A stretch of 64,000 nucleotides of DNA from a bacterium. Lineage in GTDB: Bacteria > Zhuqueibacterota > Zhuqueibacteria > Residuimicrobiales > Krinioviventaceae. Within the stretch, counting starts at the first letter, position 1; each line of letters opens with the position of its first letter. Position numbers and translations under genes: made by a program. The stretch lies in the NCBI GenBank assembly GCA_029561455.1, contig JAKQIY010000076.1, positions 5,150 to 69,149 on the forward strand, read 5' to 3'. Below the pieces are notes generated by a model. The model was not told the DNA's origin, ran no database searches, and saw only the letters and a list, made by a program, of their open reading frames with translations. Shown piece by piece: positions 26,679-41,575 of the stretch.

Positions 26679-27455
26679 TTATTTAACAATTTTCCAAAAA
26701 GTATGCAAGCTAGCGGCCGGATGAATTCTGACTAACGGCCCGGCAATCACACGGAAAAATCTGCTTATTATCGCAGCAGCCAGGCGCGGGCAATTCGGAT
26801 GCCATATCCAGGGAAATAAACCGACCACTACTTCCCGGTCATAACCGATCATGCTGAACTCTTTAAACCCGGCAGTGCGGAAAATATTCCTGATCTTCCG
26901 GGGTGTAATATAATGTTCCAGCGCCTCCGGTTTCCAATAATCGAATGGCGCCCAGCTATTCCTGGCGTAACTGCCGGATTCTTCCAGTGTTCTTTTCACT
27001 ATACCGGCAACATTGGCATAAGTCGGTATGGATAAAAACATATATCCACCAGGTCGTAACACCCGGAAAAATTCCCGGGCTGCTTTTACCTGATCCGGAT
27101 AATGTTCAAAGCTGTCTAGGCACAACAAAAAATCTACCGATTGAGCCTGCAATGGATTGCACTGCGCATCAGCCTGGATAAAAGTATGTTGCCGGTCTCC
27201 TAATGCCGGTAAAGTTTCGTGCCTGACCAGATCAAGACCAATGTAAAAATTATCACTTACAAAGTACCTGGCCAGCAAGCCAGTACCGCAGCCGACATCG
27301 GCAACCGTTTTTTTGTCCGTTTTAATACCCAATCGGTTAAAAACTGTTGCCATCAGTTCCCGGTTAAATTTTCCGGTTTGGTCGATGAATGGTGAGGTTA
27401 CCAGGGCTTTTTCTGTCTGGTAGAATTTTTGAATAGTGTTAATTTCTTTTTCCAC
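26679..27455 (-). CDS. Class I SAM-dependent methyltransferase
   Basis: Motif I VADVGCGTGLLARYF. Post-I LDL. LRPGGYMFLS. GTG start with AAGGAG upstream. Confidence 0.85.
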   Translation of the reverse strand: MEKEINTIQKFYQTEKALVTSPFIDQTGKFNRELMATVFNRLGIKTDKKTVADVGCGTGLLARYFVSDNFYIGLDLVRHETLPALGDRQHTFIQADAQCNPLQAQSVDFLLCLDSFEHYPDQVKAAREFFRVLRPGGYMFLSIPTYANVAGIVKRTLEESGSYARNSWAPFDYWKPEALEHYITPRKIRNIFRTAGFKEFSMIGYDREVVVGLFPWIWHPNCPRLAAAIISRFFRVIAGPLVRIHPAASLHTFWKIVK

Positions 27456-27470
27456 TCAACTCCTTACTGC

Positions 27471-28904
27471 TTATCTGATAAATTCAAAAATCCTGCGCGA
27501 CAGCGCCAGGAAATCAACACACTTTAACATTTGTAAACAAAGAACATAAGTCATGCCGCCGCACCCCACTATCAGTACATTATTTACCTGGGCGTATTGC
27601 ATCACCACAATGACAATGCTTAAAATGGTGGTAGCCAGCACGAGCCGTAAAACATAATAGATCAATGCTTTCCATTCCGGAGTGGCCTGAAAAATGTTCC
27701 TGGCCGCCCAAATGGTTATCAGGAGCAGAATACTCCATTCAGTTACTATTGTTGCAATTGCTGCGCCACGGTATGATACTATTGGAATTAAAATGACATT
27801 CAAGGTCAGGTTAAACAGCAATCCAACGATTTGGAAATACAAGATTTTTTTTTGCTTGTTAATTGCTGCGTACAGGGAGACAAAAAAAGAATTTAACATT
27901 TGCGCAAAAGCGGCAAAAACCAGAATACGCAGAGATATGATCGAGCCTTCAAATTTTGAACCCAGAAAAGTCAATACAATCCAGCGAGCCATGAGTAAAA
28001 TAACAGGGATCATGGGGATGGAAAATATAAATAAATACTGGCAGCCCTTGAGGAACAATTCTGTAAGCTTTTTATAATTGTTGAAACAAACCGACAACTG
28101 TGGCAGAAATGCGGCGGAAAGCACCTGCGGGATGAGGGTAGTGAGGTTTAAAAACTTGTAACTACCGGAATACCAGCCCACATCTTTGAAATTGGTCATT
28201 ACCGAAAGCATAAGAATGGCAAGATAATTATAACAAACCGCCAACAAAACGGATAATCCAAAAGGAATAGAAGCATACAGCAATGGAACTGCCCGTTTAA
28301 ATTTAAAGGAATAACGAATGCGGATGAACTTCTTTTCGAGCAGGATAAATGATAATAATAACTTGATTATGCTGGCTATTAAAAACGAAGAAATAAAGAT
28401 ACGGATATCATAGCCCATTACCAAAAAAATAATGCCGATAAAAACAGAAAATAGTTTATCGACAGCAACCCCCAGAGTTTCATATTGAATCTTTTCAAAA
28501 GCGCGAAATACTGAAAAAGCGTTCTGGGCATAAGAACTGATGATCGACGAAAGTGAAAAAATGATAATCGAATGAAAAGCTACTTTTTCTATGCCGCCGA
28601 TTTGTAAATAAACAAGTAAAAGCGCCAGGGTAACAATAACCAGCGCCGATTTGATTCCCAAAAAGCAGGCGAACAACGGTTCGGCAAGGATCTTGCGCCG
28701 GGAACTCTCCCTGGTTAACAAGGTAGACATGCCCAGATCGGTGAATAGCGAAACAAAAAAACCGATAGCGGTAGCCAGCGAGTAAATACCGAAACCTTCT
28801 TCACCAAGGTACCGGGAGGCAAACGGGATTAATGCAAAAGCCAGCAGTGTGTAGATAAATTGCCCCAGCCCGGCAAAACCAATGTTTTTATGTAATTGAG
28901 CCAT
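27471..28904 (-). CDS. wzx: Wzx-type oligosaccharide flippase (MOP superfamily)
   Basis: 477 aa with about 12-14 TM helices. The N-terminus NIGFAGLGQFIYTLLAFALIPFASRYLGEEGFGIYSLA is typical of polysaccharide-biosynthesis (Polysacc_synt) proteins. Confidence 0.8.
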   Translation of the reverse strand: MAQLHKNIGFAGLGQFIYTLLAFALIPFASRYLGEEGFGIYSLATAIGFFVSLFTDLGMSTLLTRESSRRKILAEPLFACFLGIKSALVIVTLALLLVYLQIGGIEKVAFHSIIIFSLSSIISSYAQNAFSVFRAFEKIQYETLGVAVDKLFSVFIGIIFLVMGYDIRIFISSFLIASIIKLLLSFILLEKKFIRIRYSFKFKRAVPLLYASIPFGLSVLLAVCYNYLAILMLSVMTNFKDVGWYSGSYKFLNLTTLIPQVLSAAFLPQLSVCFNNYKKLTELFLKGCQYLFIFSIPMIPVILLMARWIVLTFLGSKFEGSIISLRILVFAAFAQMLNSFFVSLYAAINKQKKILYFQIVGLLFNLTLNVILIPIVSYRGAAIATIVTEWSILLLITIWAARNIFQATPEWKALIYYVLRLVLATTILSIVIVVMQYAQVNNVLIVGCGGMTYVLCLQMLKCVDFLALSRRIFEFIR

Positions 28905-28964
28905 AGATCAGATTATTTTACCTAGAGTCAGGAGTGGATTGTTGACAGGAATGCCATAACAAGG

Positions 28965-29378
28965 TCAGCATTTACGTGATTGTAATTCAATTATGTGCTT
29001 TTCGAGATCGGCGATTTGCTTTTCCAGTTGCATATTGCGTATGGCAATTTGCTGCACCAGCGAGCGTAAATCCTGGGTAAGCCGGGTTAATTTCAGGGTA
29101 AAATAGAGCAGCAGCGATATAATAAACAATAACCCGATCATGGTCAGGGCGGAAGCCGGGTATTGAGCGCCTAAAAAATGGGTAATGGACATTAGAACGG
29201 TATTATTAATAACTACCAATACCATGCCGACCGATACGGTCAACCAAATCAGGCCCAAACTTTCGCTGATCTTTCTGTTTTTAAGCAGATTGAATAAGAA
29301 AACAATAAACACAATACCCAATAGAACAATGATCAACTTGCCCTGTAATGAAATACCGGCGTTTGCCGTCGTTCCCAT
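28965..29378 (-). CDS. DUF2304-like small membrane protein with C-terminal coiled coil
   Basis: LKNRKISESLGLIWL..., three to four TM helices, then TRLTQDLRSLVQQIAIRNMQLEKQIADLEKHIIELQ. This family typically accompanies GT2 genes. Confidence 0.5.
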   Translation of the reverse strand: MGTTANAGISLQGKLIIVLLGIVFIVFLFNLLKNRKISESLGLIWLTVSVGMVLVVINNTVLMSITHFLGAQYPASALTMIGLLFIISLLLYFTLKLTRLTQDLRSLVQQIAIRNMQLEKQIADLEKHIIELQSRKC

Positions 29379-29399
29379 AAGAATATCTCCCGAATATAA

Positions 29400-30800
29400 T
29401 TAATGTTGTAACCGGATATTCGACATTTTTAAAACCTTTTGCTGATCGGATAAAGCTGTATCAACCGGATTTCCGTTGGTTTGCTCACGCGGTACACCAT
29501 TACCATTTACTTTCCGCCCATAGCGGATTTTTCTGGTTATGTCCCCTATTGCCATTTTTTTCGATACCAGATCGTTCATAATCAATAAACCTACAATCAT
29601 ACCCAACAGCCGGTAATGTTGCATTAATACTGCAACTATGCGATAATCAGGTGCAATCATATGATAAACCAATAGCGCTGTGTAACTGGTCAGTGTTGCG
29701 GAGCCGACATTATAAATCAGTTTATCCCTGGATCGCAAAAGCGTAAACCCGCTGACAAGTATAATTATATTGGCGATTACAAATAAAGCAAAAGCAATCA
29801 ATCCCTGTTCAGCGGCAATTAATAAATAAGCATTGTGAACAATTCGTAAACCCTGCGTTTGTTTATCGGCAAAATGCCGGTAGTTATTGAGGCCAACGCC
29901 AAAAGACTTGTTCTCATTAATAATTCGATAGGCATCTTTGGCAAGAGATGCCCGGCTGTGTTTAGCTTCACCTGCCAGTGACTCTGATGCACCGGACATC
30001 CGCGCGCTGATATTGTTGCCATATTTAACCCCCATAAAAATAATAAAAAGGATACTCAGCGTCACAAAAATAATTTTTTGCTGCCGCTTTATTTTTCTGG
30101 TATTTAAATCAAACATTGCAAAAATGGCCATAGCACCGATAAAAGCCAGCCAGGCGCCGCGTGTATAAGTAGCATACAATGCACCCAGGGAAAGACCCGT
30201 GATAATGATCCAGAGTAATTTTGGTTTTAAATTTGTAAAAAATGCAATACGAATAGCTAATGGGACAAGAGTGATCAGGTAAGCTCCAAAAGCATTGGCT
30301 ACTTGCATAGTCCCGGATACTCTGTATCCCGACGCAATTTTAAAATAAGGTATACGGATTGGGCCGACTTGCCATTGCCAAAAACCGATAAAACTCTGAA
30401 AGCCGAGACCGGTCAGCAAGCCGATCACCAAACTGGGCAGGAATTGTCGGTCGTGCAGCCGGGAAGCAATGATCAAAAAGATCAACATGGCGCGGGTTAA
30501 ATGTACAAACTGAAAGCGAAATTCGGCATAATCATAACAGACAAACTCTCCGGTTAGGGCCAAAAGGTAAAAAACCACTAGTAATAATTTAACAAAAAAA
30601 CCCAAAAACCAATATTGTGATTGCCTGCTTTTATCGGCAGTTAAAAACAGCAGCAAATACAAGGGAATATCCACTGGCATAAAAATATCGGAACCCAGAA
30701 TATCGCCATTGCGCAAATGCCCAACGATTACGGAAACACCCTGGTTGATCGATAATAAGAAACCCAGAGAAATATAAAGGACCTGAATAAAAATAGCCAT
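29400..30800 (-). CDS. O-antigen polymerase/ligase-like (Wzy_C domain) membrane protein
   Basis: At least 10 TM helices. TYTRGAWLAFIGAMAIF motif and a large loop (SGASESLAGEAKHSRASLAKDAYRI...NNYRH...HNAYL). Confidence 0.75.
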   Translation of the reverse strand: MAIFIQVLYISLGFLLSINQGVSVIVGHLRNGDILGSDIFMPVDIPLYLLLFLTADKSRQSQYWFLGFFVKLLLVVFYLLALTGEFVCYDYAEFRFQFVHLTRAMLIFLIIASRLHDRQFLPSLVIGLLTGLGFQSFIGFWQWQVGPIRIPYFKIASGYRVSGTMQVANAFGAYLITLVPLAIRIAFFTNLKPKLLWIIITGLSLGALYATYTRGAWLAFIGAMAIFAMFDLNTRKIKRQQKIIFVTLSILFIIFMGVKYGNNISARMSGASESLAGEAKHSRASLAKDAYRIINENKSFGVGLNNYRHFADKQTQGLRIVHNAYLLIAAEQGLIAFALFVIANIIILVSGFTLLRSRDKLIYNVGSATLTSYTALLVYHMIAPDYRIVAVLMQHYRLLGMIVGLLIMNDLVSKKMAIGDITRKIRYGRKVNGNGVPREQTNGNPVDTALSDQQKVLKMSNIRLQH

Positions 30801-31043
30801 AATGATACTATACTGTCATGAGTTGAGACAAATAAATAATGAGCAAAATTAGTACTTCAATAAAAACAATATTTTACAAATTCTTACTAATTTTTATCAA
30901 GTTAACACAAAATATCGGGCAATATCTGTACCATGCCGCATTATTATTAAATTGAACAGATAATAATTTTGTTTTTAGTATTTTTTTATTAGATTGTATA
31001 AAATCCACTAGCGGTAAATAGTAATATCCGGTAGTCACTAATA

Positions 31044-32060
31044 ATGAAAATACAAAAAATTTCAGAAATACAATTTAAACAAATTCTGGCATTTAATAAA
31101 CAGATTTTTCCGCAGCGTAGCGACGCCGCCGCACATTTCCGGTTTCTTTTTGTAGATAATCCTTTGGTTGCAGATAAATCGAAACCTTGTGGTCTGGTTG
31201 CCATCAATGAAAACAATGAAATATTCGGCCAGTTTCTGCTGTCGCCGGCGGAATATAATTATCGGCAGGAGATAAAGCTCTGTTATTTTGGCTGTGATTA
31301 TTATGTTGCCCAAGCATACCGCACCGGCGGCACCGGGGCATTGCTGGCGATGCAGGCGATCAATGGATACAAGCCCTATTTCACAATCGGGCCTTCACCG
31401 GAAGCGCTGCAAATCAGCCTGGCATTAAAAACCCGCTGCATTGGTAATTTGCACAAATATATCCGTTTTAAAAATGTATTAATCCCATTCAAAGCCGTAC
31501 AGCATTTACATAAACCTGTTTCTGTCGCATTTCAACACAAGCCGGTGTTATTTCCCGATAGTGTTCAAAGTAAAGGAGTAGTATTTAAAAAACTGGCCGG
31601 AGCGGATGACTGGCGCGAAGTAAGGCCGTCCGATAATCATCTTGAATTTTCCCGTTCCCGGCAATTTATGGAATGGCGGTTTTTTAGTCAACCGGACAAG
31701 TATAGCGTTTACCAGACCGACCAATTCAACAGTTACCTGGTATGTCGGGTAATGGACTGGCATGGGTTGCGGCTTTTGGCCCTGGTCGATTACCGTACCA
31801 GCCTTACCGATAGCCGGCAATTTACAGCGCTGCTCGATAGTGCATTTAGAATCGCAACCGGCGCCGGATTGGATGGAATGCTGACCATGAGTTCCCTGGC
31901 GTTTTTTGACACCAGGCTGCAAAAGAAAGGATTTATCAAAATCGGCAGACCGCAGGCAATTTTAACCAATGCGGCGCTCGACCTGCCTTTGGAAAAAATG
32001 ACAAAGCGTAATTTACTGATAACCACAATGGCAGATTGTGATATGGATTTAAATATGTAA
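31044..32060 (+). CDS. GNAT-like acyltransferase (putative)
   Basis: VAQAYRTGGTGALLAMQAI fits the R-x-x-G-x-G/A acyl-CoA-binding motif. No competing long ORF overlaps it. It is one of only three plus-strand genes. Confidence 0.45.
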   Translation: MKIQKISEIQFKQILAFNKQIFPQRSDAAAHFRFLFVDNPLVADKSKPCGLVAINENNEIFGQFLLSPAEYNYRQEIKLCYFGCDYYVAQAYRTGGTGALLAMQAINGYKPYFTIGPSPEALQISLALKTRCIGNLHKYIRFKNVLIPFKAVQHLHKPVSVAFQHKPVLFPDSVQSKGVVFKKLAGADDWREVRPSDNHLEFSRSRQFMEWRFFSQPDKYSVYQTDQFNSYLVCRVMDWHGLRLLALVDYRTSLTDSRQFTALLDSAFRIATGAGLDGMLTMSSLAFFDTRLQKKGFIKIGRPQAILTNAALDLPLEKMTKRNLLITTMADCDMDLNM

Positions 32061-32071
32061 CAAGGCAAAAT

Positions 32072-33061
32072 ATGCTGGAAGAAAATAAACTAAAGAGATT
32101 TTTCAGAAATGTGCTGGCAGCGATGCTGGCGCTATTTTTAATTATGCTGGGTTATACACAACGGGCAAAAAAACAGTACCTGCAAAACGGCTGTGTCCTG
32201 TCGATATTTTTTCACAATCCACCGCGTCGTCTCTTTCTGTCCTGCATCAAGTGGTTGAAAAAAAACGGCTTTTATTTTATTTCAACCCAGCAGTTGATCG
32301 ATTTTTTATACCTGCGTACACCTCTGTTGCCGGGCGCAGTTTGGATCACTTTTGATGACGGCTGGAAAAACAACCTGACCCAGGTCATGCCGACCATCAA
32401 ACAATATCAAATTCCGATAACTTTTTTCATTCCCACAGGTGAAATAGAAAACGGCGCCTTTTGGTTCTGCGAAGCCATTAAACATAAAAATTTATTACCT
32501 GAAGAATTGCAAATCAATCCTTTTGAAAAACTGTTACAACTCACCAACCACGAACGGCAGCGAATTATCAACGAATTATACCGCAACGATGATTATACCT
32601 CACCGGAAAACGGCGAGCCGTTTACCCTTGCCGATATAAATGAGCTTGCGGCTCTTCCCTATATCGGTTTTGGTAGCCATACTGTTAATCATGTTGTTAC
32701 AACTAATTGCGCCAGAGAAGAACTGGATTTTGAAATTCAAAAATCACGGCTGGTCCTGGAACAATGGCTGGGAGTGGAGATCACCGCGTTCGCCTATCCA
32801 AACGGAAATTATGACGGCCGTGAAAAAGCGATTTTACAAAAATATGGCTATAAAATAGCGGCAACCATCGAAGAACACCCGGTAACGTATGCAACCGATC
32901 CTTTTCTGGTGCCGAGGAATTGTGTGCTGGATGACGGTTCCTTTGCGGAAAATCTATGTCATTTGCTCGGTGTGTGGACCCCTTTTATTATCAAATTGAA
33001 ACGACTGACCAGTTGGGCGCTTAATCTTCCACAATCTCAACAAGCCCGTACTCCTTACTGA
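32072..33061 (+). CDS. Polysaccharide deacetylase (NodB homology domain), N-terminal TM anchor
   Basis: WITFDDGWKNN (the metal/catalytic DD motif), GSHTVNHV, FAYPNGNYD. Confidence 0.85.
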   Translation: MLEENKLKRFFRNVLAAMLALFLIMLGYTQRAKKQYLQNGCVLSIFFHNPPRRLFLSCIKWLKKNGFYFISTQQLIDFLYLRTPLLPGAVWITFDDGWKNNLTQVMPTIKQYQIPITFFIPTGEIENGAFWFCEAIKHKNLLPEELQINPFEKLLQLTNHERQRIINELYRNDDYTSPENGEPFTLADINELAALPYIGFGSHTVNHVVTTNCAREELDFEIQKSRLVLEQWLGVEITAFAYPNGNYDGREKAILQKYGYKIAATIEEHPVTYATDPFLVPRNCVLDDGSFAENLCHLLGVWTPFIIKLKRLTSWALNLPQSQQARTPY

Positions 33062-33419
33062 ACAACCAGGCAATCGGTTTACCGGCATACGCCACCGCCG
33101 GCACCGGGCGGGCTATACAGTGAAATCCTTTAGACCGGCTATACTTTATAGCATTTTCCAGATCGGGCACACGGTAACACAAATGCAGTAATTTCTGCCC
33201 TTTTGCCAGGCTGACGGCAACCGGACTATCCTCCCCCATCGGCTCTATCAGTTCAACCCGAACGCCATGCATATCGACAAATGCGACATGCACCTTTTGT
33301 ACCGGATCGCTGTGGATTTCGGTTTTATCACCGCTGATCTCGTGAATGGATTTCACCACCAGGCCGATATGTTCAAATACGGCGTCTTTGCCAAGCAAGT
33401 CGAGTTTAATCATGTGCAT
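33021..33419 (-). CDS. VOC-family protein, methylmalonyl-CoA-epimerase-like
   Basis: FEHIGLVVKSI...VHVAFVDMHGVRVELIEPMGEDSPV...LLHLCYRVPDLENAI follows the MCEE/glyoxalase pattern. Confidence 0.7.
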   Translation of the reverse strand: MHMIKLDLLGKDAVFEHIGLVVKSIHEISGDKTEIHSDPVQKVHVAFVDMHGVRVELIEPMGEDSPVAVSLAKGQKLLHLCYRVPDLENAIKYSRSKGFHCIARPVPAVAYAGKPIAWLFSKEYGLVEIVED

Positions 33420-35106
33420 CTCCCGGTAGTAATTTCAAATTGATATGCGCGGGAACTGGATATCCCATGCCAGTATCCCAGCAATATACATTATCTTCCC
33501 GGTAAGTCATGCCGCTGTTTTGCAGGAAACTGAGACAAGGTTTGTTCTTGGCAGTGGGTAAATACCGGGCGCACACCTGCTGCAAACCAAGAGAACGCGC
33601 ATAGTCGATTGCGGTATAAATCATGGTCTCTTCCACTTTACGACCCATTACCCGGCAGCTGAGAATAAAGTCCACAATCTGCCCCTGGTTAGCGGTAACG
33701 GTCATGCTTACAATGCCGGTAAGCCCGGAATCGCCGAATTTGTCGCTCACCCGGCACGTCCATAACCGGTTACCCGGCTGCGCCACCCAGGCCGCCAGTT
33801 CCGGTTCGGTTAATCGCCGGGTGGAGAGGTTCATCTGGTTGGTTTTGTTCAACAACTGGGCGGTGCGAGCCAGATCAACTTCAGTGAGCGGTTGTATCGT
33901 CACCTGCATTTCCAGAGTATGCAGCCAGTCATCGAGGGATTCCATTTTTTCCAGCAGCGTTTTACGTTTTCGCTCGGAAACATACATTTCAGTTCTGCCT
34001 AAATCCTCACTACTGGTGGCAAGGGTATCAAAGCAATTCAAACTTAACAGGGCGCTTTTATACAACATGGGATCGGCCGGCCACTCCGGCACCAGCGCCT
34101 CCGGTAGCGCTTCACGCACCCGCGCCCGCTCTACCGGGTTATCGTCGATGAAAACAACAGACTGCAAACCCAGGTTCAAATCACGCACCAGGTCGACAAT
34201 ATTCTGCGCCTTGTCCTGCCAGTTAATGCGCCAGCCGGCAAAATTATCGGTTTTTAACACCATTTCCGGGTGTTTTTCAATAGCTTCAAGGGCAATACTT
34301 TCCTCATTTTTACTGACCAGGCCCAACACTATACCCCGACGGCTCAATGCCTGCAATGTTTTCTGAAAATCGACATAGGCCTCGCCCACAGGATCGTGCC
34401 CGCCGAGGCGGATTTTTTCCCAACCCAGGTCGCCGACAATGCCACCCCACAGCGTATCGTCAAGGTCAAGCAGGATCAATTTACGGGCTTGTCCGCTTAC
34501 TGCCCGTAACCCGGCTTTAATATCACGCGCCGCCAGGGCAAACACCGGGTTGGCAAAGGCAATCTTGCCCATATAGTCCAGCTTGGAATTGAATGCGGAA
34601 GGGCCTGTCATTTCCAGCCATTTTTGTACAGGCAATACAATAAATTCAGCCCGGTCTTGTAAATTATCTGCCAGGCGCAGATTCATTTGCATTAATAGAT
34701 TGGAAATTCCCACACCGGTTTTTAAATCCATTACCCCCAGTCCGCGATGCCAGGTGGGGTACACCCATTGCATAATAAATACTGTCTTAACCCTGCCGCG
34801 CAGGTTGAGCAGCAGCACTGAAAACTCATCTACCTCGGCAAGAATTTTTTCCACTTGCGGCGGCATATAGTTCAGGGCTTGTTGAAAAGCCGGAAAAATG
34901 CTTTCGGGACGCGCCCAAATAACGGCAAAATCCGGATTTTCGCGCCACAGTGCATCGCCGGCATTCATTAAAGCCGGAACTACCTGGCCGAACGGGGCGG
35001 ATTTTACCTGCGTTTCCGGCAAGTCAGCGTTATTATTCAAGTAACCGGCAAGATTTTGAATATTAAAATCGGCAAGCAATACACCCCTGATCTTGTCCGG
35101 CGACAT
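33406..35106 (-). CDS. FkbH-like HAD-IIIC phosphatase/acyl-loading enzyme
   Basis: HAD motif I ILLDLDDTLWGGIVGD, VSKNEE, VFIDDNPVERARV, and a GNAT-like C-terminal domain. The 566-aa architecture matches FkbH-domain proteins. Confidence 0.8.
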   Translation of the reverse strand: MSPDKIRGVLLADFNIQNLAGYLNNNADLPETQVKSAPFGQVVPALMNAGDALWRENPDFAVIWARPESIFPAFQQALNYMPPQVEKILAEVDEFSVLLLNLRGRVKTVFIMQWVYPTWHRGLGVMDLKTGVGISNLLMQMNLRLADNLQDRAEFIVLPVQKWLEMTGPSAFNSKLDYMGKIAFANPVFALAARDIKAGLRAVSGQARKLILLDLDDTLWGGIVGDLGWEKIRLGGHDPVGEAYVDFQKTLQALSRRGIVLGLVSKNEESIALEAIEKHPEMVLKTDNFAGWRINWQDKAQNIVDLVRDLNLGLQSVVFIDDNPVERARVREALPEALVPEWPADPMLYKSALLSLNCFDTLATSSEDLGRTEMYVSERKRKTLLEKMESLDDWLHTLEMQVTIQPLTEVDLARTAQLLNKTNQMNLSTRRLTEPELAAWVAQPGNRLWTCRVSDKFGDSGLTGIVSMTVTANQGQIVDFILSCRVMGRKVEETMIYTAIDYARSLGLQQVCARYLPTAKNKPCLSFLQNSGMTYREDNVYCWDTGMGYPVPAHINLKLLPGDAHD

Positions 35107-35109
35107 GTA

Positions 35110-35403
35110 TTACTCCTTTACCAGCGCAGTAATGTGGGCAGCCAAAGATTCTACAGTGCGTAACGGGTTATCCTGCGTGAAATCGAGCATCCGATCGGCC
35201 AGAGTGATTTCAACTCCCGCCTGTTCCTGTACCTTTTGTTCAAGGCCGACAATAAAATTGATTACCCCCAGCGAATCCAGCTTGCTTCCCTGCCCAATTA
35301 TAACGGTACTTGGCAATTTTTCCAGCCGTTGTTTATGATCTAATTGTTCATTCAATTCATCAATTACTGCATATATCCATTGTATAGCTTGTTCCCGGTT
35401 CAT
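35110..35403 (-). CDS. Acyl carrier protein
   Basis: 97 aa. KLDSLGVINFIVGLE carries the DSL phosphopantetheinylation motif (Ser44). It abuts the neighbouring genes with gaps of 0 and 3 nt. Confidence 0.8.
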   Translation of the reverse strand: MNREQAIQWIYAVIDELNEQLDHKQRLEKLPSTVIIGQGSKLDSLGVINFIVGLEQKVQEQAGVEITLADRMLDFTQDNPLRTVESLAAHITALVKE

Positions 35404-36411
35404 TTATTTTTTTCCTGTATCGGTTACTATTTTGCTGTTCTCCAGATGGTATAATTTAACAATTCCATAAACGATAAAAATAATGGATAGTTCCGCGATC
35501 ACTTTGACAATTCGCACGGCAATACTAATTACTACCGCAATGCCATCCGGCACGATATACTTTAATCCTAACAATAAAATGCCTTCCAATACTCCCAATC
35601 CCGATGGCGCAAAAACCGCCAGCAAACCGATAATATTGCCAAGTGCAAAAATGCCGGTCAAATAAGGATAATAATGGAACGGTATTTGAATAAATGCTAT
35701 AATAGTATAATAAAAACTCAGGCCCAGCAATCCCCAAATCACTATGCGTAGAATAAAAATGGACAACAGGGTCATAAAATTCAAATTATAATCCAGTTTT
35801 TGGGTTTCGCCCTTGAGTTTCATCAACAGGGAAAGCTGGTAACGGATAAAACGGGGATGCACGGCGAGCAAACAAATAACCATCAGAATCCAGGAAAAAA
35901 CCCGATAATTTTGTAAAAAAGGATAATCGAAAACAATCGTTGAAAACAAATAAATAAACAAGGTGGTTATAGCCGAGATCAGCGTTTCCAGGTAAAAAGC
36001 AAACAGGGCGATCCGCCCGGAGATATTGTGCTGCTTGTGCAGAACCACGCGGCTGGCGACCAGCCCGACCTTTCCGGGGAAAAAACGCCCCAGGTAAGAA
36101 TAAAACCAGATGCGGATATTCGGCCCCAATTTCGCCCGCGAATCCAAACCGGCGATGATCTGATGATAGACAAAAGCATTCAGCAGCATAGCCGCCCAGA
36201 TCAGCAAACCGGGTATTAAAAGTTTCGAGACCTGGAAATGGAACTCTTGTTCCTGTAAATCGGCAATGTTATTTTTAAAATAAGCAAAAATATAATAAAA
36301 AATCAAAGCCAGAAAGGGAATGGTAATCCATTTTGAACCAAAATTGATCTTTTGCAGATTTTTTAAAATTTTATCCAAACGTTCTGCCAAGTTTTCCTCT
36401 CCCCTGCTCAA
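35404..36411 (-). CDS. Flippase-like membrane protein (lysylphosphatidylglycerol-synthase TM-region / UPF0104 family)
   Basis: About 8 TM helices. YLGRFFPGKVG motif. C-terminal FAPSGLGVLEGILLLGL. Overlaps the upstream GT2 by 4 nt. Confidence 0.6.
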   Translation of the reverse strand: MSRGEENLAERLDKILKNLQKINFGSKWITIPFLALIFYYIFAYFKNNIADLQEQEFHFQVSKLLIPGLLIWAAMLLNAFVYHQIIAGLDSRAKLGPNIRIWFYSYLGRFFPGKVGLVASRVVLHKQHNISGRIALFAFYLETLISAITTLFIYLFSTIVFDYPFLQNYRVFSWILMVICLLAVHPRFIRYQLSLLMKLKGETQKLDYNLNFMTLLSIFILRIVIWGLLGLSFYYTIIAFIQIPFHYYPYLTGIFALGNIIGLLAVFAPSGLGVLEGILLLGLKYIVPDGIAVVISIAVRIVKVIAELSIIFIVYGIVKLYHLENSKIVTDTGKK

Positions 36412-37358
36412 CGTAATTCTTTATTAGCTTCCATGTCGAACCACATGGCAAACAGAGTGAATTGCGTGGAACTCATGAACGAAAACAAGGCGGCCATAGC
36501 ATTTATTTTGGGAATATCCAGTCCCAGGAGGAACCAGAAATAGAAAATCCTTAGGAATAACAGGAAGGATAACAATCCAAAAAAGAAGCCGCAGGCATAG
36601 AAAAATACCAGAGGATGAAAATCGCGAATGATATACTTTTCTTTCATGCGTTTCAGGAACATTTTAAATAAAATCCAGCTAATGGTAAAAAGGACTTTGC
36701 GAATTTTTATACCGGATTTTTCACCGATATTATAAACAGGCTGGATCTGCACATCCTTAACCCGGAAATTATTAATATTCAAGCGCACCAGCAGATCGTT
36801 GGGCTGGCCGTAGCCTTTGTACATGGCATCCCAGTCGATAACCCTGAGTGCCTTGGCATTTATGGCCGTGTAACCGGACTGGGAATCGGCAATGTTCCAA
36901 TACCCGGAGGCGATTTTGGTAAGTAACGACAAGACTGAATTGCCGAAATACCTGATCTTGGGGATTTTTTTATACGCTTCGCCGGTGAACAGGCGGTTAC
37001 CTTTGGAATAATCCGCTTTATCCTCAACTACCGGATCAAGGATTGCCGGCAAATCCGCCGGAGCCATTTGCCCGTCACCGGCCATTACTACGGCAACATC
37101 TACATTATTGTCCCGCGCCCATTTATAACCGCTGGCAATGGCTGCGCCTACCCCCTGATTTACCTCATGGCGTAACAATAATACATCCGGGCGGCGCTGC
37201 ATATAGTCCGTTACAACCTGTACGGTTTTATCTTTGCTGCAATCATCAATTATGACAATTTTATCCACAAAATCCGGCATGGTATCAATGACCATGCCGA
37301 TTTGGGTCTCTTCGTTGTATGCCGGTACAATGGCGCAAATGGTTTTGTTTTTATACAT
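36408..37358 (-). CDS. GT2 glycosyltransferase, polyprenyl-phosphate-sugar synthase type (DPM1/GtrB-like) with C-terminal TM helices
   Basis: ICAIVPAYNEETQI, IIDDCSKDKT, VMAGDGQMAPADL, and a C-terminal hydrophobic hairpin. Confidence 0.8.
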   Translation of the reverse strand: MYKNKTICAIVPAYNEETQIGMVIDTMPDFVDKIVIIDDCSKDKTVQVVTDYMQRRPDVLLLRHEVNQGVGAAIASGYKWARDNNVDVAVVMAGDGQMAPADLPAILDPVVEDKADYSKGNRLFTGEAYKKIPKIRYFGNSVLSLLTKIASGYWNIADSQSGYTAINAKALRVIDWDAMYKGYGQPNDLLVRLNINNFRVKDVQIQPVYNIGEKSGIKIRKVLFTISWILFKMFLKRMKEKYIIRDFHPLVFFYACGFFFGLLSFLLFLRIFYFWFLLGLDIPKINAMAALFSFMSSTQFTLFAMWFDMEANKELR

Positions 37359-37361
37359 TTA

Positions 37362-39152
37362 TCATCCTGTTATGTTGTGATTATTCGCATCTTTATTGCC
37401 AAACCGGGCAATAATATAACACAAACCCTGCATCGCCAGCAGGATCAGCAAGCCATCTATGGGTATCCGATACCTGGTTTGACTGAAATATAATGAATAT
37501 CCTCCTGCCAAGGCAATAACCGGGATTAAAAATAATAGCAGCATTTTCATTTTTTTGCGCAAAGCCCAAATTCCAACCGGGAACAACAATAATACCGGTG
37601 TAAAAGACAAGATAGAGACCAGTTGCATGATCCGGCCCGGTTGGGTCTCCTCGGAAATGACCCGCGTTATTTTCGGATTCCAGAAATTAATAAATTCCGG
37701 TATAAAATGCTTGAAAATAAATTCATACGGGTAATGGCTCAGCAGGTAAAGTAAATTGACCTTGTTTTCATCGGTAAAGGTTTTCTTGACCGGTACGCTG
37801 TCAAACGGTTTGCCGTCTCTGTACCACCACAGATCCGGTTCGCCCCAGGGATGCAGCCAAATCATATACCCATTTGCGTCTAATGTGGGTTGATCGAGGA
37901 ACACCAGCAATGCAGCGCGGCGGAGTTGTAAAGGCGATACCGGCTGCGGATAGTGGATTTCGAAATAATTAGCATTCACCGGCATCTTGAACACCAGGGA
38001 ATAATTCCAGTATTTGGTAGCGCCGCCCGACCTGATAGCAGCGCCGTTATACTGCACACTATCGGCGCCCGACACAATTTCCAGGGTATCGAGGGAATTC
38101 CAGGTTTTCAAATTTACAAATTCCCCCTGCATACTCACCCGCTGCCTGGCTACAACCTGATGCACATAATTGCTGTCCGGTCCGGCAAAAACAATCCCGA
38201 AATAACTGTTACTATCCGGTAAGGTTATATTCTCATAGGGATGCAGGGTGAAAAAATAATTATCGTCCAGGTAACAATCAAAAATACTTTGCTTTTGTTC
38301 AACATGATAATATACTGAAAACTTGGTCACCGCTACCGAATCCTGCTCCAGGGCGCGGTTGCGGGCAATGTTCCAGAACGTTTCGCCATATATTTGCCCC
38401 TGCGGCAGACAGGCGCGGGCAAATTTGGCTTTATGAAAGACCAGGTAATTGCGCACCGTCCAGGGAGTAAAGACCAACAGCAAGGTAACTCCCAGCACTA
38501 AACACATGCCAATTCTTTTCCAAATGCCGGCATTGGTCATCAATAATATCCATAAACCAAACAATGGTATGGCAAACATATAAATAGGCTGGGCCAATAC
38601 GCCGAGCCCCAGAAATACACCGGCAAAGACCATCCAGCCCCAGTGTGGATTTTTAAAAAAGCGTAAAAATCCCAATACCGATAACAGGATAAAAAAACTG
38701 AAAAGCTGGGTGATATATAATAAACCCGGCAGGTAGACAAAGAATGGGTAAAATCCGGCATAGACCAAAGTCAGACGCGCAGCCGTCGGTGTGACCAGGC
38801 TTTTGCTCATTTGATATAAAACCAGCAAGGCCAACAGGCTGACCAACACTTCAGCAATCCGCGCCGCCAGCAGAGAATGACCGGCCACAAAATAAACACC
38901 GGCCAGGAACAAGGGGTATAGTGGTTCCAGACAATAATTTTTATACAAGTTGCTGAAATACACACTGGGGCCAAATCCTTCGCCGGCGACAATATGCTGC
39001 GCCGCTTTATCGTAATGCACGGTATCGTAGAAATACCAGCGATCTTCCAGCGTCAGAATATAACCCAGGCGCACTGCCAGCACCAGGACAAAAACAATTA
39101 TCAGAAATTTTCGTTCAGAACAATTTAAAAATCCAGTCAGCAGCTTTTTCAT
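37362..39152 (-). CDS. GT-C-fold (ArnT/PMT_2-like) glycosyltransferase with a ~260-aa extracytoplasmic insert
   Basis: TM1 is followed by LEDRWYFYDTVHYDKAAQHIVAGEGF. Multiple TM helices follow, then a soluble insert (residues ~245-505), then further TM helices ending QTRYRIPIDG. Confidence 0.7.
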   Translation of the reverse strand: MKKLLTGFLNCSERKFLIIVFVLVLAVRLGYILTLEDRWYFYDTVHYDKAAQHIVAGEGFGPSVYFSNLYKNYCLEPLYPLFLAGVYFVAGHSLLAARIAEVLVSLLALLVLYQMSKSLVTPTAARLTLVYAGFYPFFVYLPGLLYITQLFSFFILLSVLGFLRFFKNPHWGWMVFAGVFLGLGVLAQPIYMFAIPLFGLWILLMTNAGIWKRIGMCLVLGVTLLLVFTPWTVRNYLVFHKAKFARACLPQGQIYGETFWNIARNRALEQDSVAVTKFSVYYHVEQKQSIFDCYLDDNYFFTLHPYENITLPDSNSYFGIVFAGPDSNYVHQVVARQRVSMQGEFVNLKTWNSLDTLEIVSGADSVQYNGAAIRSGGATKYWNYSLVFKMPVNANYFEIHYPQPVSPLQLRRAALLVFLDQPTLDANGYMIWLHPWGEPDLWWYRDGKPFDSVPVKKTFTDENKVNLLYLLSHYPYEFIFKHFIPEFINFWNPKITRVISEETQPGRIMQLVSILSFTPVLLLFPVGIWALRKKMKMLLLFLIPVIALAGGYSLYFSQTRYRIPIDGLLILLAMQGLCYIIARFGNKDANNHNITG

Positions 39153-39161
39153 AAATAACGG

Positions 39162-40814
39162 TTACTTTATTTTATAGATCATGATAAATGGTTGAATATT
39201 TTCATCTTCCGGTCGAAAGTCGGCCAACAGGTCGGCATTATTTTCCAGCCAGCGGAATAAATTCTCGCGGTCGGCGGCGATCTCCGGGTAGCGTTTTTTG
39301 GTGTATTTCCAGGAAAAGAAATGCCTGGTAAAACCATCGGCGATATAGTAATAAACACTATCCTGACGCAGGGAGTTCACCAGAGAATCAGCCACATGCG
39401 TCACCTTGTCATTTAAATTGGTTTCAACAATCCGATAATCACCGGGTTTTAAACTGTCCGGATTAAATAACCCCGGCAAGTACGGCGGAAACGATTCGAC
39501 AGCAACTTTTGAACCGGTCGGTAAATTTTGTTCCACCCAATGCAGCGCCAGGGTGCGCGGATCAGGATCGTTCAAGCGGTTCATATAGCGCAGAGAACCA
39601 CCCGAACCGGCAATCACAAAGCCCAAAACAATACCGGCAATGGCGGCTGTTTGCGCCGGTTGTTTTTTAAATAGTTTTTCACAAAACCAGATAATGGCCA
39701 ATGCCGCAGCCGCTGAAAAAAAAGGCATTAACGGCAATATATGGCGCATGGCTTTGTACGACATGTCTTCAAAAAAGAAATAGGTCGGAAGAGTGAACAA
39801 TAAAATCGCAAGATCTTCTTTACGATGTCGGATCACCATCAATACCAGTCCAATAATTATAAACGCCATCAGTACATAACCAAGCGTTGCCGGGATTGAA
39901 TTGGGATAAAAAACACCAAAACCCGGGGACTGATCACCGGTCCAGTACGATAAAAAACCGCCGCCGCTGCCGATTTTACCAACTTTTTCAAAACTCTGTA
40001 CCCGCAAAAAGCCATTAATGGTTGTCCTGAAATTCAGTAAAAATAACGGACAAAAAAGCAGGAATGTCACTATAGCAGTCACTTTGGCAATGAGCAGATT
40101 TTTATTGACCACATGCCTGATGCCGGGACCGGATTTGATAATCATATAAAGATGCACAAAAGCAAACGGCAGGACGATCAGAAAAGCGCTGTATTTTGTC
40201 GCCACGGCGGCAGCTATAAAAAAACCAGCCAGAAAATAATTTTTTTTGCCGGGGCGCTGCATGATACGGATAGTAAAGTAAAAAGCTAAAAGCACACAAA
40301 AGGTAACCGGTACATCCACTGTACTGAAATGGGAATTGCGGACATGAACAAAATTAACGGCTAACAAGAGTGCACCGATCAGGGCGGTTTTATTGTCGTA
40401 CAACTCGCGTAATATCCGATATAACATATAAACAGATATAATTCCCAAACAGGCGACAAAGTACCTGCCGAGCAGCACAAACATAAAGGAATTTTGTTCA
40501 TAAAAAATCCGCGCATACTCCAGGGATTCAAAGCGTCCCGTTAGCAAAGCAACCAGGATGTATCCCGCCATGAGCGCCGTCAGGATGAGGGTATAAAAAA
40601 TCGGGTATACGCCAAAAGCGAAAAAAACCTCTTTATCCATAAAGCGGCTGTCCAGTAACTGACCGGCCTGGGTAACCAGTTTTACCTCATCGGGATGATA
40701 TTTGAACGGTTCGCCAAAATGAATACCATAAAATCGCAGCACCGCTGCCAGGATCAGAATAAAAAACAGCAGCGTTGTTTGATTATTTAATCTATTTAAA
40801 ATTGATCTAATCAT
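39162..40814 (-). CDS. GT-C-fold (GT39/ArnT-like) glycosyltransferase
   Basis: LRFYGIHFGEPFKYHPDEVKLV is a first-loop DE motif. About 11 TM helices and a soluble C-terminal domain. 1-nt start/stop overlap with the upstream GT2. Confidence 0.75.
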   Translation of the reverse strand: MIRSILNRLNNQTTLLFFILILAAVLRFYGIHFGEPFKYHPDEVKLVTQAGQLLDSRFMDKEVFFAFGVYPIFYTLILTALMAGYILVALLTGRFESLEYARIFYEQNSFMFVLLGRYFVACLGIISVYMLYRILRELYDNKTALIGALLLAVNFVHVRNSHFSTVDVPVTFCVLLAFYFTIRIMQRPGKKNYFLAGFFIAAAVATKYSAFLIVLPFAFVHLYMIIKSGPGIRHVVNKNLLIAKVTAIVTFLLFCPLFLLNFRTTINGFLRVQSFEKVGKIGSGGGFLSYWTGDQSPGFGVFYPNSIPATLGYVLMAFIIIGLVLMVIRHRKEDLAILLFTLPTYFFFEDMSYKAMRHILPLMPFFSAAAALAIIWFCEKLFKKQPAQTAAIAGIVLGFVIAGSGGSLRYMNRLNDPDPRTLALHWVEQNLPTGSKVAVESFPPYLPGLFNPDSLKPGDYRIVETNLNDKVTHVADSLVNSLRQDSVYYYIADGFTRHFFSWKYTKKRYPEIAADRENLFRWLENNADLLADFRPEDENIQPFIMIYKIK

Positions 40815-41575
40815 CAGGCGCCTGCCTTGCTTATATTACGCCGTATCTGCGCGACGCGCAGCAATGTGACCATAATTGCCAGAAAACTTTTAAATGGATA
40901 TAAAAGCGAAGCCAACGATGAATGCATAGAGGTGCCAAAGATCCGCTGTTTAACGGTTACTTGTACTTCTTTAATTTCAAAGCCCATCAGCGAGAGCAGC
41001 AATAATACCTGGGTATCCGGGAAATCATGGGGGTATTCGTCTGCCAGCAGGTTAAAAACGTTTTTATGCAATAATTGCAATCCTGTGGTTACATCCGCAA
41101 TTTTTTTACCGCACAATATATGCAGAACAATACTAAAGAGTTTTATGCCGGTCTTGCGGAAAATGTTGGTTTTGTACTCGCCCGGAGTTAAAAACCGCGA
41201 GCCGAGGATCACCTGGTATTTGCCCTGGTTGAACACCTGCAGCATAGCAGCCAGATCTTCAGGGCGATGCTGGCCATCGGCGTCCATGCTGAAAACGGCA
41301 TCATAGCCGCCAGCGCGCGCATATTTAAAACCGGTTTGCAGTGCGGCCCCGTAACCGAGATTGACCGGCAGACCGGCAACCCGCACGTTATAGCTGCGGG
41401 CAACTTGTTCTGTTTTATCGCGTGAGCCATCATCGATCACCAGCACATCAATCACCCAACCCAATTTTTCCAGGCCGGCTTTTTCCGCTTCCAGCTTGAG
41501 TAGTACACCCGGTAAATTCTTTTCTTCGTTAAATGACGGTATCAATATTAATAATCTTTTTACATCGCCGGCCAT
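40814..41575 (-). CDS. GT2 glycosyltransferase, polyprenyl-phosphate-sugar synthase type (short form)
   Basis: LLILIPSFNEEKNLP, VLVIDDGSRDKT, SMDADGQHRPEDL, and a single C-terminal hydrophobic segment. Confidence 0.8.
   Translation of the reverse strand: MAGDVKRLLILIPSFNEEKNLPGVLLKLEAEKAGLEKLGWVIDVLVIDDGSRDKTEQVARSYNVRVAGLPVNLGYGAALQTGFKYARAGGYDAVFSMDADGQHRPEDLAAMLQVFNQGKYQVILGSRFLTPGEYKTNIFRKTGIKLFSIVLHILCGKKIADVTTGLQLLHKNVFNLLADEYPHDFPDTQVLLLLSLMGFEIKEVQVTVKQRIFGTSMHSSLASLLYPFKSFLAIMVTLLRVAQIRRNISKAGA

Follow-up and report, generated by a model that had tools for sequence, protein, structure and literature searches.

What would a loader of the FkbH type do in a genome that has no polyketide synthase (PKS) for it to supply? 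The question is raised by a 64,000-nucleotide stretch of bacterial DNA (contig JAKQIY010000076.1 of assembly GCA_029561455.1, positions 5,150 to 69,149 of the forward strand), referred to below, in its full length, as the window. Here the genes for a small carrier protein, an FkbH-type protein and a metalloenzyme of the VOC family are packed together on the minus strand of a glycan locus. An initial annotation of the DNA read this trio as a means of delivering a C3 acyl group to a sugar independently of any PKS. The present analysis has supported that reading, with the glyceryl chemistry and the acceptor as predictions. On balance, we regard it as probable that the trio constitutes a PKS-independent acyl-donor cassette for glycan decoration, in which a carrier is loaded by the FkbH-type protein, its cargo is tailored by the VOC enzyme and transferred with the help of neighboring GNAT and NodB genes, and the product is used by GT-C glycosyltransferases. 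Family memberships, catalytic residues, folds, gene order, conservation of the surrounding block and the absence of a PKS are all observed, and it is on these that the argument is built. The genes concerned are listed here in window coordinates.

35110..35403, minus strand: carrier protein, 97 amino acids, acyl carrier protein (ACP)/DltC-like, with a predicted phosphopantetheine site at Ser44 (codon 35272-35274)

33406..35106, minus strand: long-form FkbH-type loader, 566 amino acids (TIGR01686, match to PDB 3slr, catalytic motifs)

33021..33419, minus strand: VOC metalloenzyme, 132 amino acids, of the single-chain glyoxalase I/methylmalonyl-CoA epimerase (MCEE)-like type, proposed C2 tailoring enzyme (Glyoxalase_4)

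31044..32060, plus strand: tandem-GNAT acyltransferase candidate, 338 amino acids, convergent with the trio (AlphaFold2 (AF2) fold, cluster relatives)

32072..33061, plus strand: NodB/CE4 deacetylase, 329 amino acids, with one N-terminal membrane helix (Polysacc_deac_1)

35404..36411, minus strand: polytopic membrane protein, 335 amino acids, of no recognized family (seven hydrophobic segments)

36408..37358, minus strand: family 2 glycosyltransferase (GT2), 316 amino acids, resembling polyprenyl-phosphate sugar synthases (Glycos_transf_2)

37362..40814, minus strand: two GT-C glycosyltransferases (PMT_2/ArnT-like), 596 and 550 amino acids (PMT_2, PMT)

The open reading frame (ORF) list and the translations bore out the three genes of the trio, their coordinates, their packing and the motifs quoted for them by the initial annotation, namely LDLDDTLWGG, VSKNEE and IDDNP in the 566-residue protein and LDSLG in the 97-residue protein. 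A gap of 3 nt separates the carrier gene from that of the FkbH-type protein, which in turn overlaps the VOC gene by 14 nt. The membrane-protein gene upstream ends at 35404 and so abuts the carrier gene with a gap of 0 nt.

The 566-residue protein scores well above the cut-offs of both TIGR01686, the FkbH model (286.4 bits against 146.65, the match spanning positions 2-320 of the 323 in the model and residues 207-534 of the protein), and TIGR01681, the HAD-IIIC model (60.4 against 35.75 bits), and a TIGR01686 scan of the whole genome found FkbH once. It is made up of an FkbH_N-like domain (residues ~1-200), to which PF21211 gives a weak match, a HAD-IIIC phosphatase domain (~207-335) and a C-terminal transferase domain that carries Cys484 within an SCRV motif. 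The GNAT-like character that had been ascribed to this last domain is weakly visible (Acetyltransf_3, E 0.013). Residues 36-365 match PDB entry 3slr, the structural genomics model of BF1531 from Bacteroides fragilis, with an E-value of 7e-47. The residues D214/D216/T218, S265-K266-N267, K299 and D321-D322 are invariant among 22 family members and canonical FkbH-type proteins, as is Cys484, the candidate thioester residue, in all aligned sequences. Two canonical proteins served for comparison. One is encoded on a Streptomyces viridifaciens plasmid (L087) beside a type I PKS, in a set of 3-hydroxyacyl-CoA dehydrogenase, ACP, acyl-CoA dehydrogenase and HAD-IIIC genes that represents the classical methoxy/hydroxymalonyl-ACP arrangement; the other lies between nonribosomal peptide synthetase (NRPS) and PKS genes on a Bacillus thuringiensis plasmid (L086). 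Identity of the window protein to these two is only ~25%, and the HAD motifs (DLDxT, SKN, K299 and DD) and the SCRV cysteine are all kept. On this comparison the 566-residue protein belongs to the FkbH family and should work as such. The initial annotation had allowed for a generic HAD phosphatase devoid of FkbH-specific residues; the protein passes the FkbH model and retains the DxDxT, SKN, K, DD and SCRV signatures. Conservation of the cysteine domain and the presence of an adjacent carrier gene led us to reject a plain HAD phosphatase.

For the carrier, the family model that had been expected to recognize it did not do so: neither PF00550 nor any other Pfam or NCBIfam model matched the 97-residue protein, even at E≤10. 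An alignment of 27 orthologues encoded directly upstream of FkbH homologues was more informative. Ser44 of the LDSLG motif is invariant across them and Asp43 nearly so, and a profile built from them retrieved almost exclusively carrier proteins from all PDB sequences, with DltC first (E 2e-4) and its phosphopantetheinylated serine aligned with Ser44. The AF2 model (pLDDT 84) is a four-helix bundle (helices 3-20, 44-62, 69-72 and 84-96) in which Ser44 begins helix 2, and its Foldseek neighbors are nearly all ACPs or DltC (TM 0.5-0.7, with E-values that are weak, as expected for a small fold). Judged by profile and predicted fold, the 97-residue protein is a divergent but genuine carrier protein; a modifiable serine, the possible lack of which had been raised, is present at the canonical position. 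One phosphopantetheinyl transferase of the AcpS type is encoded in the genome.

The absence of a polyketide partner, noted earlier for the neighborhood of the trio, holds for the genome as a whole. No ketosynthase, acyltransferase, or acyl-CoA or 3-hydroxyacyl dehydrogenase is found among the annotated ORFs between 17.5 and 64 kb of the window. Across the genome (5.85 Mb, 98.8% complete), ketoacyl synthase (FabF), FabH and PP-binding (AcpP) gave a single match each, and all three belong to a fatty acid synthesis cluster on a different contig. Related loci were collected by a scan of species-representative genomes, in which at least 290 loci were confirmed and 80 kept, with flanks of up to 10 kb and clustering of the neighboring genes; counts given below refer to these 80. 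Searches by tblastn with the FabF and FabH of this genome left 74 of the loci without a ketosynthase-like sequence within 10 kb and gave a FabF-like match in three and a FabH-like match in three others. Because such matches occur in so few loci, the cassette is not regularly linked to a PKS, a linkage that the initial annotation had named as a possible objection. A role in supplying secondary metabolism was rejected, since neither PKS nor NRPS genes occur in the genome.

If the trio is not serving a PKS in its own genome, what company does it keep elsewhere? Among the candidates scored, more than 4,290 homologues of the FkbH-type protein reached E≤1e-10; their identity is typically 55-60%, and the phyla represented include KSB1, Chloroflexota, Nitrospirota, Planctomycetota and Acidobacteriota. 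A carrier gene lies within 5 kb of that for FkbH in 67 of the 77 loci with enough upstream sequence, and is adjacent on the same strand in 62 of the 80. The gene that follows is variable, and may encode a MaoC-dehydratase/short-chain dehydrogenase (SDR) fusion, a VOC protein, a hexapeptide or LpxD-like acyltransferase, or an unknown protein. Genes for tandem GNATs, MBOAT proteins and NodB deacetylases are also found nearby, a candidate acyltransferase being encoded within 5 kb in 51 of the loci. The remaining neighbors, among them GT2, GT4, WecG, NeuB, and UDP-sugar dehydrogenase and epimerase genes, are those of glycan biosynthesis, in agreement with the glycan setting proposed for the trio. 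The carrier-FkbH pair is thus a widespread but patchy glycan-locus cassette, with a constant core and variable tailoring and transferase genes, and the window is one instance of this common cassette and not a unique system. Described at first as unusual, the arrangement is so in the literature and common in genomes. Likewise, of the trio that was to be sought in related loci, the carrier-FkbH core proved widespread and the VOC gene optional (about 12-14 of the 80). Five of the 43 genomes in the order to which the host belongs pass the cut-off of the FkbH model, the three from its genus among them, a patchy spread such as would be expected of a glycan-variation cassette.

Annotated records contain further versions of the cassette. 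A Clostridium perfringens plasmid carries consecutive genes for a nucleotidyltransferase, a VOC protein, an ACP and a HAD-IIIC protein; pSymB of Sinorhizobium meliloti (L089) has VOC, MBOAT, ACP and HAD genes together with a GT4 gene and methyltransferases; and a Niveispirillum plasmid combines HAD-IIIC, ACP, a WcbI-family acetyltransferase and an SDR. The cultivable bacteria Sulfidibacter corallicola M133 (L050) and Thalassoglobus neptunius KOR42 (L074) likewise carry the cassette. In a complete 3.44-Mb genome (CP121328.1, L091:4001-12399), the genes for ACP, FkbH and VOC proteins are followed by those for a 377-residue protein, an S-adenosylmethionine (SAM) methyltransferase and a NodB protein, and the stretch directly adjoins CTP_transf_3 (CMP-sugar synthetase), NTP_transferase-CBS, PglD-like and NeuB genes. 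By its gene content this is a nonulosonic acid pathway, apparently of the legionaminic type, and a good candidate for the synthesis of an N-(methyl)glyceroyl nonulosonic acid. Neighbor families of ~368, 314, 580, 160 and 228 residues recur in L006, L013, L015, L016, L021, L024, L028, L032, L036 and other loci, the ~580-residue family always being accompanied by a hexapeptide transferase. No Pfam or NCBIfam match was obtained for these families, nor any in NCBIfam for the 377-residue protein of L091, and the recurrent families may be further transferases or tailoring enzymes. A separate variant, in L051, L069 and L078, comprises FabH-like ketosynthase III, SDR, ACP, a ~160-residue unknown, FkbH, VOC, MBOAT and AMP-binding genes; we take it to resemble the acpP/fabH2/fkbH-domain group cj1299-cj1304 of Campylobacter jejuni flagellar glycosylation.

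What the third member of the trio contributes depends on the chemistry of the VOC enzyme, which had been described as MCEE-like. Membership of the VOC family stood (Glyoxalase_4, PF13669, 56.7 bits against a cut-off of 27); membership of the MCEE family did not, the score against the equivalog model TIGR03081 being 53.9 bits and the cut-off 114.95. The H/E/H/E metal tetrad (H17, E56, H79 and E128) is invariant in 13 sequences. The best PDB matches are the clostridial entries 3hdp and 2qh0 (glyoxalase I/lactoylglutathione lyase, E 3e-18), with human MCEE next (E 9e-10), and relatives within the family carry the JGI label methylmalonyl-/ethylmalonyl-CoA epimerase. Three VOC homologues were picked from a separate search anchored on the VOC protein, and each of them adjoins an FkbH homologue as well as a small gene of the size expected for a carrier. 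The role of a true methylmalonyl-CoA epimerase in propionate metabolism was rejected because the score lies below threshold and the VOC gene is strictly linked to FkbH. As a side observation, if the gene for 3hdp/2qh0 also adjoins an FkbH/carrier pair, the native substrate of that protein may be a carrier-bound 2-hydroxyacyl thioester and not a glutathione hemithioacetal.

The position of the VOC gene is instructive in this respect. Both it (12 loci) and the MaoC-dehydratase/SDR fusion (24 loci) sit after the FkbH gene, and the two co-occur in none of the 80 loci; a hypergeometric estimate puts the chance of this at ~0.01, related loci not being independent. Since MaoC-SDR mirrors the dehydratase-ketoreductase (DH-KR) pair of lactyl-starter modules, this pattern suggests that VOC and MaoC-SDR are alternative tailoring steps on one carrier-bound C3 intermediate, glyceryl-ACP. 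Glyoxalase I and MCEE both act via an enediolate that is stabilized by a metal and lies next to a thioester. With a 2-hydroxyacyl thioester as substrate, such chemistry would bring about either epimerization at C2 (D- to L-glyceryl), which we favor, or β-elimination of the C3 hydroxyl. The second outcome would leave the cassette as it is and change its product: acting as an eliminase or isomerase, the VOC enzyme would convert glyceryl-ACP to pyruvoyl-ACP or to a rearranged C3 group, and the sugar would bear a pyruvoyl- or lactyl-type substituent. It is established chemistry that an enediolate with a β-hydroxyl can eliminate, the product of the glyoxalase I as which the closest solved relative was deposited is a 2-hydroxyacyl thioester, and the mutual exclusion of VOC and MaoC-SDR at the same position would also fit two routes for removal of the C3 hydroxyl. 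We nonetheless consider this version unlikely. No reductase accompanies the VOC enzyme in the window, so that a lactyl group would not be reached; N-pyruvoyl sugars are rare; and the epimerase labels of the relatives, together with the rank of human MCEE among the structural matches, directly behind the glyoxalase I entries, speak for epimerization.

Returning to the cassette as an acyl donor with an epimerizing VOC enzyme, the question becomes which enzyme removes the acyl group from the carrier, and to what acceptor. Three transferases had been proposed, namely the C-terminal domain of the FkbH-type protein, the GNAT-like product of 31044-32060 and the FemAB-like product of 60505-61641; the data favor the second, a tandem GNAT that recurs beside the cassette. 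No Pfam or NCBIfam match was obtained for it directly. Its cluster relatives match the GNAT families Acetyltransf_1, 7 and 9, and the cluster profile gives weak matches to GNATs in the PDB. The AF2 model (pLDDT 80.6, pTM 0.82) is a double GNAT, and the top 50 Foldseek matches are N-myristoyltransferases, which are themselves double GNATs (E ~1e-10, best cited 9e-11; TM ~0.5) and N-acylate an amine from an acyl thioester. In 19 of the 80 loci, and in six of the 12 with VOC, a member of the tandem-GNAT family is encoded no more than 5 kb from FkbH; the family directly follows the VOC gene in L005, L007, L010 and L092. A prediction of the complex between tandem GNAT and carrier scored 0.15, the mark being 0.32, and counts neither for nor against. 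Genomic association thus makes the product of 31044-32060 the best candidate for acyl transfer from the carrier to an amino sugar.

Its companion, 32072-33061, matches Polysacc_deac_1 (NodB, PF01522) with 78.9 bits and has intact TFDDG, HTVNH and AYPNG motifs. A membrane helix is predicted at residues 9-29, and the best named NCBIfam matches are the poly-N-acetylglucosamine (PNAG) deacetylases IcaB and PgaB. A NodB gene accompanies FkbH at a distance of up to 5 kb in 13 of the 80 loci, seven of them with the GNAT family, and the FkbH-NodB pairing is seen in L091 also. The association of GNAT and NodB genes with the trio supports a logic of deacetylation followed by re-acylation.

It could be argued instead that the GNAT and NodB genes are unrelated to the trio, and that the acyl group is passed to an oxygen or to some other acceptor without an amine (a sugar hydroxyl, a lipid or a protein) by the C-terminal domain of the FkbH-type protein or by another enzyme such as the products of 60505-61641 and 61673-62137. 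The replacement of the GNAT family by MBOAT, hexapeptide or LpxD-like transferases in other loci would be in keeping with this, as would the resemblance of the carrier to DltC, which feeds an MBOAT, and the presence of these two further acyltransferase genes in the window. There is, however, no MBOAT gene in the window, and the two further acyltransferases lie 25 kb away, beside a NodB, GT2 and membrane-protein set of their own. GNAT and NodB, moreover, stay in synteny with the trio in L002 and L003, two loci from different phyla, and the order of genes in the four loci in which a tandem GNAT directly follows VOC also points to a connection between them. We therefore judge O-acylation, or transfer to a non-amine acceptor, to be improbable. 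Least convincing is the notion that the 566-residue protein is a mere HAD phosphatase or acetyltransferase of sugar metabolism beside a non-functional carrier, or that the pair feeds a polyketide, tetronate or nonribosomal peptide pathway elsewhere, as might be suggested by the bare NCBI family name ("HAD-IIIC family phosphatase"), by the failure of the small protein to match Pfam PP-binding and by the PKS, NRPS and tetronate pathways that characterized FkbH enzymes serve (PMC9057759, PMC7489565): it is rendered very improbable by the conservation of the SCRV cysteine and the full FkbH model, the invariant serine and ACP-like fold of the carrier, the adjacency of the two genes in 62 of 80 loci, and a genome whose ketosynthases and carrier domains are confined to fatty acid synthesis, with ketosynthase-like matches in just six of the 80 loci.

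The reading of the trio as a donor of acyl groups for a glycan can be taken a step further by considering the genes upstream. No Pfam or NCBIfam match was found for the membrane protein of 35404-36411, in which seven hydrophobic segments are predicted. A BLASTP comparison with the true LPG_synthase_TM protein of the window found no match, and alignment to LPG_synthase_TM (PF03706) gave an hhalign probability of 8.8%, confined to a C-terminal PSGLGVxE motif. It may be a transporter or flippase of a lipid-linked sugar. The GT2 of 36408-37358 matches Glycos_transf_2 (79.6 bits) and has a C-terminal hydrophobic segment (247-283); its best NCBIfam matches, AglJ (75 bits) and PpgS (67.7 bits), fall far short of the equivalog cut-offs. 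The GT-C pair of 37362-40814 matches PMT_2 (44.6 and 62.7 bits) and PMT (47.7 bits). The GT2, the membrane protein and the two GT-C enzymes together suggest that the acyl swap takes place on a lipid-linked N-acetylhexosamine (HexNAc) that is used outside the membrane, this being the weakest layer of the model.

The block as a whole is conserved in the nearest loci, L002 (a Cytophagia metagenome-assembled genome (MAG)) and L003 (a KSB1 MAG), in which the FkbH-type proteins are 66-81% identical to that of the window. Synteny extends over ~15 kb (window 26679-41575) and takes in a GT2, two GT-C enzymes, a second GT2, the membrane protein, the trio, NodB and GNAT (convergent with the trio in both loci as in the window), Wzy, DUF2304 and Wzx. 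Such conservation suggests that the module was transferred between phyla in its entirety. A SAM methyltransferase gene (26679-27455, minus strand) closes the block in the window and in L002, and was not found in L003. Methyltransferases also occur beside the cassette in L089, L091 and L093. By analogy with di-O-methylglyceroyl pseudaminic acid, O-methylation of a glyceroyl group by a neighboring methyltransferase is possible.

How might these components work together? The following route, in which the substrate, the action of the VOC enzyme, the acceptor and the order of the steps are our inferences, would account for the gene set. The carrier would be converted to its holo form by the single AcpS of the genome. 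The FkbH-type protein would take up 1,3-bisphosphoglycerate onto Cys484, its HAD domain would remove the 3-phosphate, and the D-glyceryl group would pass to the phosphopantetheine on Ser44 of the carrier. By way of a metal-stabilized enediolate at C2 of the carrier-bound 2-hydroxyacyl thioester, the VOC enzyme would then yield L-glyceryl-ACP most likely, with pyruvoyl-ACP, formed by β-elimination, as the alternative. The convergent pair would come next: the NodB enzyme would de-N-acetylate a HexNAc, plausibly a polyprenyl-phosphate-linked sugar made by the GT2 of 36408-37358, and the tandem GNAT would use the acyl-carrier protein to re-acylate the amine so freed. Once flipped, the lipid-linked sugar with its decoration would serve the two GT-C transferases of the block. 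In its most specific form, this proposal states that the block 31044-40814 performs an "N-acyl swap" on a lipid carrier, by which an L-glyceroyl or other VOC-tailored C3 group, taken straight from glycolysis, is installed via the FkbH-loaded carrier before the product is flipped and GT-C enzymes attach it to a surface glycan or a glycoprotein. The VOC enzyme would then be the first 2-hydroxyacyl-carrier-protein epimerase, and the cassette family would hold the long-sought genes behind the glyceroyl and lactyl N-acyl groups that bacterial sugars, nonulosonic acids among them, carry. This full version is a tentative one, and we would put it no higher than a possibility worth pursuing.

A number of considerations weigh against the reading of the trio as an acyl-donor cassette with this route. 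The loader is of the long form, and its substrate could differ from that of the canonical enzymes because identity to them is low (~25%) and there is an additional N-terminal domain of ~200 residues. The VOC enzyme falls far short of the MCEE cut-off, and the solved structure closest to it bears the annotation glyoxalase I; epimerase, eliminase and isomerase activities are inseparable by sequence. The GNAT of the window, besides matching no Pfam family, is just 13-18% identical to most members of its cluster. The chief objection concerns the NodB protein: enzymes of the IcaB/PgaB kind act outside the cell, and the topology implied by the N-terminal helix is ambiguous, a point that bears upon the re-acylation step: were the catalytic domain of NodB periplasmic, a cytoplasmic GNAT could not re-acylate its product. 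Finally, the membrane protein of 35404-36411 seems to fit no family, and the similarity of the GT2 to polyprenyl-phosphate synthases lies far below the relevant cut-offs.

Elsewhere in the window, a second set of genes is found on the minus strand (55317-63057), comprising the following.

62134-63057, minus strand: NodB deacetylase

61673-62137, minus strand: hexapeptide acyltransferase

60505-61641, minus strand: Acetyltransf_6/FemAB-like GNAT

59367-60347, minus strand: GT2

58108-59148, minus strand: true LPG_synthase_TM protein (110.8 bits)

56659-58101, minus strand: FAD amine-oxidase-like protein

55317-56621, minus strand: AMP-binding-like protein, a weak match

This set looks like a parallel module for deacetylation, re-acylation and flipping that draws on a different acyl source.

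N-Glyceroyl, methylglyceroyl and lactyl groups on the surface sugars of bacteria shape antigenicity and the recognition of phage and host; examples are Pse5Am7Gra of Tannerella forsythia and the di-O-methylglyceroyl-Pse of C. jejuni. N-Glyceroyl and di-O-methylglyceroyl nonulosonic acids are thus known to exist, and the gene responsible for the glyceroyl group of T. forsythia "remains elusive" (PMC6120980). For the di-O-methylglyceroyl pseudaminic acid of C. jejuni, a mechanism of deacylation followed by re-acylation has been hypothesized (PMC3068675), and the flagellar glycosylation locus of this organism has an fkbH-domain gene, cj1302, that is mentioned in passing (PMC7099621). That mention is the only link between FkbH and glycans that we found in the open literature, in which no description of the cassette was found. 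The operation of the cassette in glycan biosynthesis free of PKS and NRPS, its tailoring by a VOC enzyme and its coupling to a tandem GNAT and NodB appear to be new. The cassette may explain the origin of glyceroyl decorations on sugars and, if the proposal is true, gives the question of their source a genetic answer that is directly testable. It would also mean that 1,3-bisphosphoglycerate is diverted to glycan acylation and that FkbH chemistry extends beyond secondary metabolism. The modular design, with a constant carrier-FkbH core, a VOC enzyme or dehydratase/reductase for tailoring and a GNAT, hexapeptide, LpxD-like or MBOAT protein for transfer, would aid the prediction of glycan substituents from sequence.

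It remains to compare the cassette with systems that are already understood. OzmB forms a phosphoglyceryl-S-enzyme intermediate that is dephosphorylated and handed to an ACP (PMC9057759), and by analogy the same route, from 1,3-bisphosphoglycerate to glyceryl-S-enzyme to glyceryl-S-ACP, is predicted here (PMC9057759). The pairs FkbH-FkbJ (FK520), OzmB-OzmE (oxazolomycin) and ZmaN-ZmaD (zwittermicin), as well as the tetronate pathways, share with the window the TIGR01686 domain, the HAD motifs, the SCRV cysteine and a dedicated small carrier encoded next door. In contrast to the OzmB type (366 residues, ~25% identity), the window protein has the extra N-terminal domain of ~200 residues seen in 3slr. 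The cassette also differs in having no FkbI/K-type dehydrogenases, FkbG methyltransferase, ketosynthase or FabH-like tetronate enzyme, and in its setting, a glycan locus in a host that lacks PKS and NRPS genes, where its partners are VOC, tandem GNAT and NodB proteins.

Loading modules that contain FkbH domains make D-lactyl starter units, as does the DH-KR-FkbH-ACP module of BryA in bryostatin biosynthesis. The likeness here is that a carrier-bound glyceryl group is tailored before transfer, and the MaoC-SDR fusion that follows FkbH in 24 of the 80 loci is the counterpart of the DH-KR pair. In the window, by contrast, a VOC enzyme replaces the dehydratase and reductase, the proteins are separate chains, and it is a glycan, not a polyketide, that receives the product. 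With MCEE (TIGR03081) and the Ni/Co glyoxalase I of Clostridium acetobutylicum (3hdp, 2qh0), the VOC enzyme shares fold type, size, the H/E/H/E site and, it is predicted, enediolate chemistry. Unlike them, it is tied to FkbH and a carrier and not to propionate metabolism or methylglyoxal detoxification, and its substrate is presumably protein-bound.

The de-N-acetylation of lipid-linked amino sugars before their transfer in the periplasm has precedents in ArnC/ArnD/ArnT (4-amino-4-deoxy-L-arabinose, L-Ara4N) and in FlmF2/NaxD/FlmK (galactosamine, GalN, in Francisella). Like these systems, the block combines a gene resembling those of GT2 polyprenyl-phosphate sugar synthases with a NodB-family deacylase, a membrane protein and GT-C enzymes. 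It differs in that a carrier would supply a new acyl group for the amine once freed; no protein of the window reaches an Arn- or Nax-type cut-off, and the NodB enzyme is closest to the PNAG deacetylases.

The Dlt pathway (DltA, DltC, DltB and DltD) provides a further parallel: there too a small dedicated carrier, DltC, to which the carrier of the window is closest by profile, serves the acylation of a surface polymer. In some related loci the parallel extends to the pairing of the cassette with an MBOAT, just as DltC is paired with DltB. The differences lie at either end of the pathway. Loading would be carried out by an FkbH-type enzyme from a glycolytic acyl phosphate and not by an adenylating ligase, and the window has no MBOAT or DltD-like gene; the tandem GNAT found there is soluble, which implies N-acylation in the cytoplasm. 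If the proposal is true, the cassette constitutes a second carrier-protein-fed route to acylation of the cell envelope, beside that of the Dlt pathway.

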